64,000 bases of DNA. Source: Eledone cirrhosa. Taxonomy: Eukaryota. The position numbers were made by a program, and so were the translations under genes. The stretch is taken from positions 2,666,001 through 2,730,000 of the forward strand of contig OZ024753.1 in the NCBI GenBank assembly GCA_964016885.1, given 5' to 3'. The notes below the pieces were generated by a model, which was not told the origin of the DNA, did not search any database, and worked only from the letters and a program-made list of their open reading frames with translations. This document shows, one piece after another, positions 12,251-47,800 of the stretch (positions within the stretch are counted from its first letter, which is position 1; the number at the start of each line of letters is the position of its first letter).

Positions 12251-12251
<1 letters not shown>

Positions 12252-12421
12252 CGAAGGAGTTGTGGTAAGGAACGAGATGGACCAACCATAATGCACCAGA
12301 GTACTCAATACTTAGGGTAGTAGAGTGGGTAATGTAATAGGAGAAAGTATTTCTGGACTTTAGTCCAGAAATAGCCGTCGAAACAGCTTGAGCTCTGCCG
12401 TCGGCGTCATACTTTCTCCTA
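12251..12421 (-). mobile_element. Family B element in (TA)n with inverted segments and a half-hammerhead remnant
   Basis: Shares gagtactcaatact..gtagtagagt with 28984-29160, and gtactcaatac with 16648-16863. Carries the IR taggagaaagtat/atactttctccta, the hairpin tatttctggact/agtccagaaata and GAAAC...GTC, but no CUGANGA. Confidence 0.5.
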
Positions 12422-12540
12422 TATATATATATGTTACAAACTTAAGATGATCACTGGGTAATTACTTTGGCCAGTATGAATGAATCTTGGATAAGAATGC
12501 TTACAGAATTTAAACAAAAAATCCATACACAATAGTACAT

Positions 12541-16647: not shown

Positions 16648-16863
16648 CGTTATTCCGGGTTGAATCGGAGGTAACCACAGTAAGTAAGGTACTCAATACA
16701 TAGCAGAGTATAACAGTTTTAATATAGATGAGATTCTACAGGACTAGAACTGTTTCATTCATTAGAAATCATCAGGAATCATCAGAAATCATCAGGAATC
16801 TCCTGATGATTTCTAATGAATGAAACAGTTCTAGTCCTGTAGAATCTCATCTATATTAAAACT
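16648..16863 (-). mobile_element. Penelope-like pLTR/retrozyme-like short element (family B) in a (TA)n array, with a 63-bp perfect inverted repeat
   Basis: (TA)n lies on both sides. Arms 16715-16777 and 16801-16863 are exact reverse complements. On the minus strand the hammerhead core is followed by ATTAAA and the gtattgagtac motif. Confidence 0.6.
16732..16780 (-). ncRNA. Minimal type-I hammerhead ribozyme motif
   Basis: Minus strand reads gattc CTGATGA t-ttc-taat-gaa-t GAAA CAG ttctagtc CTG TA gaatc. Stem I is gattc/gaatc. Stem II is ttc/gaa with a U.U at its base (atypical). Stem III is ACAG/CTGT, followed by a GUA triplet. Confidence 0.7.
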
Positions 16864-26800: not shown

Positions 26801-28754
26801 CATTATCATCATCTTTACATTCATTTTTTTATGCTTGCATTTTTTTAAATACTAAGCTTCTTAATATTCTTCATATCATATCTTTAACTTACCAATCTAT
26901 ATAATTTGTTCAAAGGTATATAGATTACCTTTTAAAATAGTAGTAAAGGGTGGAGAAATGAAAGATATAATGTTGCTGTTTTGTTATATGCTATGAAATT
27001 CAAGTGAAGTACATCATCGTAATTTCTAAATTATCTTGACATTTCATTATCATTCATAAGGTGTTGCAATGATTGAGTAGATAGATTTCCAGCTTATTGG
27101 CTGAAGAATCATGACTTTCAATTCAGTTTTTGTTATGCTGTACATTGCCAAAGTATTTACTAAAATATAATGCACAATAACAAAAGATAAGAACAGAGAA
27201 AGAAAGATTTCATAGTGAAACAGAAAATTATATATTGCTATGATATTTGGTGGGTTACAAATTGTCTGTGCAGAAGTATTAAATAAAATGGTATCTTTAC
27301 GTTTGATGAAATTTAAAATGATATAATTTTTAGATATTCAATTATTATTTAAAAACATTTAAGAAACAAAAATAGAAATTGAAAAATTAGGATGAACAGA
27401 AACTGATTCTTAAATTGGTTTTTAACTGATACAACACTGAATATATACCCTTTGAAAGATTGGATATAAATGGTTGGCATAATAAATATATGGCCATGTT
27501 GAAACCTTAGGTAAACACACAGAAATCCAAGCTTAATGGTGTAGATTGAATATCTAAATCTTTCATCTTTACAGTGCATCTAGACATGTTATAACTGTTA
27601 ACATAGGCAAACAACAAATAGAAATACATTAACAAAGGCCAAAAAGGAACGTTCAAATTACTTTAGAGCAGTACTATTTTATGGTATAACTATATATTTT
27701 AGGTGTATCTCTTAAATCTGTACCATGGTGTTTTTACATTGCAATTCACTATGATATTTTAAAAGGAAAAAGAAAATTGAAAATAATGTAATTATCCTGA
27801 AAATGTTATGCGTAATCTTCGCAGATTTTATTTCCTCATATTTACTCCATCAGTATTTTAAATTATTTTTTCTTGCTTTCATTTTGATAGCTGAAGGAAA
27901 TTAAATTTTTAAGTAATAATTTAAAAAAAGTAATATCACAAGGTTTCTGTCATCCTACAGATTGGAGTTTTGGTTAATTGCAGTTTGAATTGCTTTGCTT
28001 ACTGCAATAAAGGAAGCAGAAATGACAAGAGTAATAAAATAGACCTAAAAGTAATTTGTAATATAGGTTCATACAGAGAGAAGTGTTTCATTGTTTTATT
28101 TTATTTTCCTAAAATATTTCATACAACACAAATGAAAGGCCTTGTCTTTGCTCTAAACACACACACGATTTAAAATCATGTAATCAATACATTAAAACAG
28201 TACAATGAAAGATAGTTTAATTTGCATTCATATCGCAAGCAAACATTTTTTCCTTGTGCCGGAATATTTATGCATGCTTTACATTGAATTTATATAAAAA
28301 TTCTGAACTAAAGTAATATAGGCATAGACATGGTTAAGGTGTTCACTTCACAACCATGCAATCCCACTACAAGTGCTTGCTACTATAGCCTCAGGTTCAC
28401 CAATGTTTTGTGAGAGAGATTTGGTAGACAGAAACTGTGAAAAAGCCTGTCATATATATATATATATCATCATCATCATTTCATTTCCGCTTTTCCCTGC
28501 TTGCAAGGGTGGAACGGGAACTGATTCTGGCTTGATTTCTACAGCTGGATGCCCTTCCTAACACCAACCTCATTTACAGTGAGTGCTTGGTGCTTTTTTG
28601 CCGTGGCACCTCCACGACCACTTTCTACAGCTGAGTAAACTGGAGCAATGTGAAATAAAGTGTCTTGCTCAAGGAAACAACACATCACCCGGTCTGAGAA
28701 TTGAACTCACAACCTTTCGATTGCAAAGCTCTAACGACTAAGCCATATGTGCCT

Positions 28755-28789
<35 letters not shown>

Positions 28790-28791
<2 letters not shown>

Positions 28792-28965
28792 AATGTTAAG
28801 TATTTCCGCGGAAAAGGTAAAGGAAAGAAGAGTGCTCTATGTATAGTACAGAGCTATTTAATTATGAAATAAACAACACAATATAATTATTCCATTACCC
28901 AAAGTTTCACAAAGTTAGACGATTCTAACAGAAAGGTCTGATATCGCTCATCAGAAGGAATCTTT
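28790..28965 (-). mobile_element. Family A pLTR-like element in (TA)n
   Basis: TA-flanked and collinear with 29204-29441 (ggaaaag..aagagtgctct.tgta..cagagct..attattccatt.acc..gtttc). Carries a hammerhead. Confidence 0.6.
28889..28961 (-). ncRNA. Minimal type-I hammerhead ribozyme motif
   Basis: Minus strand reads attcctt CTGATGA gcga-[31 nt including a gttaga/tctaac hairpin]-ttgt GAAAC tttgg GTA atggaat. Stem I pairs 6/7, stem II is 4 bp with G.U pairs, stem III is 2 bp. Confidence 0.7.
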
Positions 28966-28983
28966 ATATATATATATATATAT

Positions 28984-29159
28984 GAATGAGTTAGGATCCC
29001 AATAGCTGAGCTCTTGCCATTTCCTAGAACTAGCTGTTGAAACAGCAAGAGATCAACTATCAGGGTCTTGACTCATTCATATAACCATACTCTACTACTC
29101 CAAGTATTGAGTACTCTGTTGAACAATGGACGAATCAGTTTCTTACTGAATCCATCTTG

Positions 29160-29160
<1 letters not shown>
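28984..29160 (+). mobile_element. Family B element in (TA)n with a ~40-bp imperfect inverted repeat
   Basis: tgaatgagttaggatcccaatagctgagctcttgc pairs with gcaagagatcaactatcagggtcttgactcattca. It is followed by actctactactccaagtattgagtactctg. Confidence 0.5.
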
Positions 29161-29203
<43 letters not shown>

Positions 29204-29208
<5 letters not shown>

Positions 29209-29437
29209 AATGAAGTAATTCCATCGGAAAAGTCCAGGAAAAAAGAGTGCTCTCTGTAGGTAACAGAGCTTAATAGTTATGTAATAAGCAACATAAGGCA
29301 ATTATTCCATTTACCAGTGGTTTCTTAAAAGCAAAAAATTTTGCTTTCAATCCTCAGAATGAAAAAAGAGACCAACATTTTTTTGCTTTTAAGAAACCAC
29401 TGGTAAATGGAATAATTGCCTTATGTTGTTTATTATA

Positions 29438-29441
<4 letters not shown>
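29204..29441 (-). mobile_element. Family A pLTR-like element in (TA)n with a ~65-bp inverted repeat
   Basis: Arms ~29273-29339 and ~29377-29444 are near-perfect reverse complements. Carries a hammerhead. Confidence 0.6.
29305..29364 (-). ncRNA. Minimal type-I hammerhead ribozyme motif
   Basis: Minus strand reads tttcatt CTGAGGA ttgaaagcaaa-attt-tttgcttttaa GAAA CC act GG TA aatggaa. Stem I is 7 bp and stem II about 11 bp. Stem III is near-palindromic (accactggt) and is followed by a GUA triplet. Confidence 0.8.
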
Positions 29442-29480
<39 letters not shown>

Positions 29481-46298: not shown

Positions 46299-47800
46299 TT
46301 TTATTGTCACGAGGAATATGAAGGGATATTGCAAGATGGATGAATGAAAAATGATTGAATACAAAATATAGAAATGCGTCATATAGTCCTCAGAGAGAAC
46401 GACTGATACTTAGGAGCCTTTCAAGAAATGGTATAAGTCTAGGATTACTCTGACTACCAAATGGAAATGTCCTTCTTCAGCTCAACAACTTTATTTCAGG
46501 ACAAAAATATCCTCTCTCCACTCATTTTCCTGTCCAAGCTGAACTTAAAAAAAGTTGGGGAGGGTTTTGCTGAAGAGGAAGGGGTCTGTGCTCAGTCACA
46601 TCCACTACGCCTTTTACCATAGCCACCAGACACAGGAAAGTAGCCTAACCTTTTCATCAAAAGAAAGTTGGCAGGATAATCTTTATGATAGACCCAACAG
46701 ACATATACTATACCATTCATTTGTATAGTGCATATACCATATTCTTTCATTTTGTTTTTTGCAATCATCTGATTTCTCTGACCCCCACCCCTTCACTTTC
46801 TGTATCCTTTCCCTGTAATATTCTCTCATTTGATGATTCTGATATTTAGGTAAGTAAATATCTTCAAATTTACTTAATTTTCATTCCACTCATATTCAAT
46901 ATACTCAAGCTGATAGACTTAACAAACCCCTAATGAAATAAAGGAAAAGTTTTGAAAATCTGTAGTTTTCTGAAGTAAATAAACAGATTTAATACATATT
47001 TAGCCCATGGACATCGGTATCATCATATGTTTTGTAAACTTCCCTGACTATTTAATAAAAACATTATCCACTCCTAGATATATAAGAGCCCTTAATTCCT
47101 GATGGATTCGTAGAAGCACTGTCTTGACACATGGCGTGTCTTGAATAACTTTAACTTTGCAGAGCCCACACCTCTACAGATCTGAACATGGCAAATTTCT
47201 TCCAGAGAAGGAGAGAGTGGGAGAAAGTGATAAAGAGATATAGTGGAAGAATCGATTCTAGTACAGGACTGGTCCTTTATTTATTACCATCAAAAGAATG
47301 AAGGGAAAAGCTGACATTGGCAGGATTTGAACAGAGAGCATGGTGAACAGAAAGAAATATCAAAGAATTTAATATGACAACCTAACAACTTTACCAATTC
47401 ACCACCTACTCCTAGATATACCATCGATAAAAAACAGAAAAAAGTCTATGATTATGGCTAGAATGCCTTTGTTTATAAGTCTACTTGATCCGAGGTGATC
47501 TGGAACTAACCAACTTCAGCGGCTAGATGAAAAACCAACAACCATTGCTGTAAGTTCATTCATGAAGATTGATTGTTATTGGTTTGTTTCACAAAACTAT
47601 AGTAAATTGAAATAAGTTCTCAATTAGCACTACTCCAGTTATGTTCTTTTCAGTCTGATGGATATGAAATGTTATAAGAATATTACGATCAACTAGATCA
47701 ATAATTTAAAGATTAACAAAACGGTTTTCATTGTAAATGTAATTGAAGATAAATCTTATAAAAACAATTAGACTATTTTTAGACTGATATTGTTTTTGTT

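Follow-up and report, generated by a model that had tools for sequence, protein, structure and literature searches.

A TA microsatellite in the window (the whole 64-kb stretch of Eledone cirrhosa DNA that was analysed) is made up of four (TA)n tracts, at 28757-28789, ~28966-28983, 29163-29203, and 29443-29470, with three inserts between them, as a preliminary description of this DNA had stated. The first tract adjoins the 3' end of element 1, the second separates elements 1 and 2, the third is common to the 3' ends of elements 2 and 3, and the fourth closes the cluster. Element 1 (family A1, 28790-28966, minus strand) reads as the 3' end of a 5'-truncated Hydra-clade Penelope-like element (PLE), and consists of a hammerhead and a ~62-nt tail without an inverted arm. 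Element 2 (family B, 29024-29162, plus strand) reads as the 3' end of a third PLE family, with a ~79-nt tail; upstream of it lies a tail-less inverted arm (28983-29023, minus strand), recognized as an inverted-repeat match, and the resulting hairpin has a folding z-score of -5.9. Element 3 (family A3, 29204-29444) combines a sense part at 29204-29378 (minus strand), carrying a hammerhead and a ~63-nt tail, with a tail-less inverted arm of 66 nt (29379-29444, plus strand) that is 97% complementary to 29273-29338. The homology proposed earlier for elements 1 and 3 extends over a 104-nt segment at 75% identity.

The type I hammerhead was defined here by the core CUGANGA / GAAA / NUH together with stems I-III, all of which are present in elements 1 and 3. 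On the minus strand of element 1, the motif (28889-28961) has CUGAUGA at 28954-28948, a long stem II, GAAA at 28908-28905, and GUA at 28898-28896, with stems weaker than those of its family. That of element 3 (29305-29364, also minus strand) has a 7-bp stem I, CUGAGGA at 29357-29351, an 11-bp stem II, GAAA at 29324-29321, a near-palindromic stem III, and GUA at 29314-29312. The predicted cut sites, 28896/28895 in element 1 and 29312/29311 in element 3, coincide with those proposed earlier. Only these two inserts had been thought to fold as hammerheads, and this holds for complete cores; the middle insert is nevertheless a stub of a hammerhead family too, on the plus strand, which keeps the 3' half of the motif (GAAA at 29039-29042 and AUC at 29059-29061, with a decayed stem III) and lacks CUGANGA. 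Longer family B copies have a complete hammerhead, and the core is intact in 14 of 24.

Two further PLE-end stubs with inverted arms lie beside TA tracts in the same window, at 12251-12422 and 16649-16863 (families B2 and C). In addition, the 5' end of a tRNA-headed SINE-like repeat (~28470-28756, minus strand; weak Rfam tRNA match at 28752-28700) adjoins the first TA tract of the cluster, and this junction recurs at three other loci (L017, L026, and L107).

Each insert was then used as a genome query, and the best 40 of 2522, 2348, and 2366 first-look candidates (elements 1, 3, and 2) were scored. It is important to remember that these candidate counts, although above 2,300 for every insert, are not copy numbers, and that loci chosen as best matches to short queries are biased toward short copies. 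The best other copies are 95% identical to element 1, 98% to element 3, and 92% (partial) to element 2. The TA flanks expected of genome-wide copies are indeed present: a microsatellite lies within 30 nt of the 3' end in 25/29 (A1), 29/29 (A3), and 24/28 (B) loci, compared with 6.9% of window positions, and copies of all three families are inserted in (TA)n. An inverted arm is found within 450 nt upstream in 21/29, 23/29, and 20/28 loci, respectively; these flank and arm counts exclude the window's own three loci and the duplicate L088, and include the near-duplicates L006, L011, and L012 (A1). The 3' end points are discrete and of two kinds, either ~35 or ~100 nt past the cut site. Sense homology at the 5' end is ragged: across 30 A3 loci it reaches between 9 and 550 nt upstream of the core, and across 30 A1 loci between -4 and 337 nt. 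Most best-matching loci contain only the last 150-300 nt. The end of another family lies within 500 nt of 22 of 84 loci, compared with 7 of 84 in the band from 1000 to 1500 nt (six own or duplicate loci excluded).

A separate observation concerns the tails. The motif GAGYRC occurs 18-25 nt into the tail in all six PLE families that were checked, and in the window at 28831-28837 and 29245-29251 (minus strand) and 29109-29116 (plus strand). Among distinct tail copies it was counted in 36/43, 23/25, 24/35, 22/27, 29/30, and 10/13, compared with 1-2% per shuffled tail; the motif was picked after inspection. It is shared even though the tails of the four groups barely align, and it recurs in A-type elements within their 5' UTR, as well as close to the end of the coral element Hydra-2_Amil. 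This is possibly a recognition site for a protein.

The protein-coding parents of these ends were approached through an inverted endonuclease piece adjoining an A3 copy (L042), which as a query gave 30 A3 endonuclease loci. An A3-type hammerhead follows on the same strand within 1.5 kb downstream in 26 of these 30, and at nine of the ten loci chosen for extension, the ORF and a terminal GUA hammerhead point the same way. At L299, the A3 end is fused directly to the 5' end of the next copy (a tandem junction), and L300 holds a 704-codon ORF with one stop. The endonuclease region (96-98% identity) and the A3 ends (95-98%) match in age, and a family member measures ~3.8 kb, including a 1.6-kb low-complexity 3' UTR. 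Similarly, 18 of 30 family B endonuclease loci continue on the same strand into the B 3' UTR or the B end, with the B end itself in five, and the family B ORF pieces include YRDD and the endonuclease. The link to a Penelope reverse transcriptase (RT) and GIY-YIG ORF, which the preliminary description had listed among its proposed checks, was confirmed in A3, B, and A1.

The A1 case is thinner, and the linkage of element 1's own subfamily to an ORF rests on L121, where the order is endonuclease end, UTR, LINE insertion, a close A1 end, and an inverted arm. An A1 end on the same strand within 1.5 kb was seen at none of 30 A1 endonuclease loci, and five had an inverted one upstream. Of ten extended loci, two have an A-type end further downstream (at 1.9 and 3.2 kb) that is 80-84% identical to element 1; an A-type end stands directly before the ORF at L290, and L284 and L291 are likewise A1-linked loci. 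The A1-linked ORF pieces share 65-79% identity with the A3 protein. Among 5,569 candidates, the latter has 1,768 relatives at an E-value of 1e-20 or better (best 57%), with no informative names among the 120 matches listed, and a Pfam scan of the ORF halves (P0001) gave nothing above the cut-off. None of the loci examined has an uninterrupted ORF, and the ORFs seen thus lend no support to present activity of the parent families.

Several repeats came to light alongside these parents. H0 (L122-L151), the genome's commonest PLE with 49,682 first-look candidates, was considered as a parent and rejected because its own end has a different hammerhead; it is a Hydra-type family whose protein is 52-55% identical to that of A3 and whose end has a compact hammerhead with a palindromic stem III, a GUU site, and a 62-67-nt tail. 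A 595-bp unit (L152-L181, e.g., L174:700-2500) is arranged in head-to-tail tandems and in inversions, with (TA)n on the flanks. It is very young (40 of 40 scored matches are 100% identical over 161 nt), no hammerhead was found in it by a loose pattern, and it looks like a PLE-mobilized non-autonomous repeat. A pyrimidine tract followed by AG lies 55-60 nt upstream of the terminal hammerhead (A1: 20 copies AG, 3 AA; A3: 18 AG; e.g., L294 ~2735-2700, minus strand). It resembles a 3' splice site, and an intron that is retained may account for the low-complexity 3' UTR; in Drosophila virilis Penelope, an intron end lies beside the hammerhead (PMC4209133).

The families can be placed by comparison with the Hydra clade, as defined in PMC8557442 by RWK, DKT (for DKG), a CxCx5C linker, CxxC and CxH, the absence of CCHH, canonical hammerheads, and insertion into (TA)n. 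Hydra motifs are present in P0001 and P0002. RWK and DKT are found in the A3 ORF and in the A1-linked L293, the N-terminus of family B lying outside the coverage; CxCx5C, CxxC, and CxH, with no CCHH, are found in P0001 (A3) and L293, and CxCx5C in the B-linked L313. An initial assignment of the ORFs as Nematis-like was dropped, as the motifs fit the published Hydra definition. The general layout of endonuclease-bearing (EN+) PLEs, that is, 5' truncation, an inverted pLTR, and a one-sided tail (PMC8557442), is likewise recognizable here in the linkage of RT and GIY-YIG ORFs (A3, A1, and B), the hammerhead in the pLTR, the 5' truncation, the inverted 5' copy, the optional tail, and the tandem junction at L299. 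Hydra elements are generally shorter than 3 kb (PMC8557442), which is a tendency and not a rule, and the A3 family departs from it at ~3.8 kb owing to its long 3' UTR. By motif rather than by RT tree, two of the families are Hydra clade, and the third (B) is likely so.

A hammerhead-bearing member of this clade has already been reported from a cephalopod, so the suggestion that such elements were undescribed in cephalopods did not survive. Hydra-1_Obim of Octopus bimaculoides is 2,507 bp long, inserts into (TA)n, and carries a hammerhead (Craig et al. 2021, PMC8557442 Files S1 and S2). It shares with the families described here the protein motifs listed above, the target, a single type I hammerhead ~100 nt from the 3' end, and a stem III that, like that of element 3, is a 4-bp palindrome closed by a 1-nt loop. 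The families nevertheless differ: the protein is roughly half identical by eye, and five 10-11-nt motifs of the Eledone elements are absent from the PMC8557442 supplement as consulted, in which line breaks could hide matches. Element 3's family, moreover, has a second, internal GUG hammerhead, whereas File S2 gives one sense hammerhead per Hydra family. By these sequence comparisons, the Eledone families are sisters of Hydra-1_Obim and not the same family.

Taken together, the inserts are very probably the 5'-truncated 3' ends of three protein-coding PLE families that likely landed successively in one TA microsatellite. The family structure, fixed 3' ends, inverted arms, ORF linkage, TA flanks, and clustering are direct observations, and the link to Penelope and the targeting of (TA)n had been correctly anticipated. 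By analogy with known PLE biology, the RT and GIY-YIG protein would nick (TA)n, and reverse transcription would be primed at one of two fixed RNA sites, which follow the hammerhead cut site by ~35 and ~100 nt. Synthesis would often halt once 150-250 nt had been copied, short of the low-complexity 3' UTR; priming of the other end at the upstream site would give the inverted, tail-less arm; and TA left on both sides of each insertion would renew the target. As the cut site lies inside the inserted DNA, the RNA that served as template would not have been cleaved. The hammerhead would be part of the parent element, where its near-palindromic stem III would let it act as a dimer.

A measured precedent is Poseidon of Anolis, for which two reverse-transcription start sites were mapped and the template RNA was found to be uncleaved (Frangieh et al. 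2024, PMC11167929). As proposed here, the choice between two starts sets the optional tail. Poseidon belongs to another clade, however, its tail is given as 30-40 nt rather than ~62-79 nt, and its hammerhead overlaps the start of the ORF (PMC11167929), whereas in the tandem arrangement seen here ~210 nt separate the cut site from the start codon that follows it.

The preliminary description had instead favored a dedicated non-autonomous family. On such a reading, a retrozyme- or SINE-like lineage derived from PLE ends would be transcribed as a short RNA and mobilized in trans, perhaps through circular RNA. Short copies are certainly very numerous, with the last 150-300 nt being all that most best-matching loci contain, and a preprint derives animal retrozymes from PLE ends (10.64898/2026.07.22.740005). 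Animal non-LTR retrozymes also share with the inserts a type I hammerhead, PLE ancestry, and a short unit without protein (PMC7229834; 10.64898/2026.07.22.740005). They are, however, 150-450 bp head-to-tail tandems with a hammerhead in each unit and a circular RNA (PMC7229834), whereas the inserts here are single, belong to three families, are separated by TA, and are ragged at their 5' ends; no head-to-tail tandem of a short hammerhead unit was seen at the cluster or at the loci examined. Retrozymes have no linked ORF, whereas identical sequences end ORF-bearing copies here, longer copies run into the RT and GIY-YIG ORF, and the A3 endonuclease is as young as the A3 ends. The inserted DNA also runs across the cut site and does not end there. 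We therefore regard a dedicated non-autonomous family as improbable, and retain truncated PLE ends as the explanation.

The state of the hammerheads themselves bears on whether they do anything at this locus. A type I descriptor scan of the 64-kb window gave three matches (elements 1 and 3, and a loose one at 46480 on the minus strand that is probably due to chance), compared with 0-1 per shuffle in 20 shuffles. The Rfam search that had been recommended was negative: it gave no hammerhead in the window at the gathering score nor in the cluster region up to E=10, and below threshold returned only microRNA matches driven by the hairpins. All 21 modelled pairs of the element 3 hammerhead can form, and in isolation it lies 2.3 kcal/mol above the minimum free energy (MFE) fold, but this difference is predicted to rise to 49 kcal/mol when the 66-nt arm shares the RNA; the model thus has the hammerhead buried by the inverted arm of its own 3' half. 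In element 1, stem I contains a U-U, and stems II and III contain G-U pairs, at positions that are Watson-Crick paired in most copies of the family; its hammerhead lies 6.2 kcal/mol above the MFE alone and 14.7 kcal/mol above it in the whole insert. Folding z-scores for the hammerhead-bearing elements are -0.3 and -0.8. The cores and pairing reported earlier are thus present, but "intact" was too strong a word for either fold, and the stubs found in the window probably have no activity. The assignment to type I with a short, near-palindromic stem III and a likely dimer mode stands as a prediction, with stem III self-dimers modelled at -9.6 kcal/mol (element 3) and -4.0 kcal/mol (element 1).

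Published PLE hammerheads are similar in having a long helix II, a small palindromic helix III, and a dimer mode; most are also single copies from truncated PLEs, with opposite-strand pairs 100-700 bp apart. Stem II begins here with A-U, G-U, or U-A, rather than the usual G10.1-C11.1, and family B has a longer stem III of 5 bp. Those metazoan PLE hammerheads that have been assayed to date show poor cleavage, and none as monomers (PMC4209133).

Pairing kept in unrelated stems II had been taken as a sign of selection on structure, and for the parent families we consider this probable. At the base of stem II, A1 has A-U/C-G/G-C/A-U and A3 has U-A/U-A/G-U/A-U; in stem III, A has C-G as its third pair and B has G-C. 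Core columns are more conserved than the rest in all four families compared (0.956 vs 0.891, 0.973 vs 0.948, 0.911 vs 0.812, and 0.973 vs 0.921; not tree-corrected). The covariation that was to be looked for is seen between families, whereas changes within families are mostly one-sided, pair-breaking, or absent (again not tree-corrected). The stems of the families differ yet pair, and within-family changes are mostly one-sided, so selection probably acted on the parents. The copies in the window and in the families are themselves decaying; the core is intact in 56/83 and 79/96 copies of the families of the two hammerheads.

These figures also weigh on the idea that both hammerheads are selected as functional RNA at this very locus, for example to cut host read-through, either singly or as a pair separated by 403 nt. 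All core nucleotides are kept in both, and both lie on the same strand. With so many family copies retaining the core, however, two intact cores are expected from youth alone, and a destabilized element 1 and an element 3 outcompeted by its arm by 49 kcal/mol argue further against it; we consider such a role highly improbable. That the folds are chance matches in AT-rich, MITE-like foldback DNA hardly deserves credence: the hammerhead is not the MFE fold, the z-scores are near zero, and Rfam is negative, but descriptor matches exceed those in shuffles, four families keep the core with different pairing stems, published Hydra hammerheads share the layout (PMC8557442), and the arms, unlike those of MITEs, are unequal and linked to ORFs.

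Element 3's family offers a feature of its own. In full-length A3 elements, a second hammerhead follows the ORF at a distance of ~300 nt; it is 92-95% like the terminal one and is bounded like a tail-less self-insertion; the two occur together at L294 (3760-3857 and 2481-2641), L295, L299, L301, and L303. Classed by downstream sequence, the cut triplet is GUG in 30 of 32 internal copies, compared with GUA in 23 of 23 tail-bearing terminal copies; classed by position, it is GUG in 17 of the 18 first hammerheads that could be matched, while 9 of 30 loci gave no match. Hammerheads do not cleave at NUG (PMC3138052). At L294, the modelled double hammerhead reaches -27.2 kcal/mol, compared with -18.2 kcal/mol for two monomers, and the MFE fold in this model forms a site joining the internal core to the terminal GUA. 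The internal copy, uncleavable at its GUG, might then serve as a catalytic partner, in a double hammerhead in cis that would cut only the terminal GUA, 1.1-1.9 kb downstream, without a tandem neighbor. We think this unlikely. A plainer reading, in which a harmful self-insertion survived since GUG silenced it, explains the GUG equally well, and because the internal copy is young, its intact core says little about a role. No internal copy was seen in the A1-linked loci L284 and L291. We found no published report of a PLE 3' UTR with two hammerheads, or of these families, in a search with limited coverage of the subscription literature.

The cluster is an ordinary PLE footprint, of a kind previously reported in an octopus, and as found its significance is low: new families of a described clade have left a described footprint. 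These families may already be catalogued in repeat libraries such as Repbase, Dfam, or that of PMC13282606. The outcome is the fallback that the preliminary description had itself allowed, in which known Penelope pLTRs lower the novelty and the ribozyme call stays, here as a prediction. The cluster does show several TA-targeting retroelement families piling into common microsatellites and seeding the genome with thousands of hammerhead stubs and hairpins. The common tail motif offers a starting point for asking how the protein locates its two start sites, and the two-hammerhead family would provide a clean natural test of what PLE hammerheads do and whether they act as dimers.
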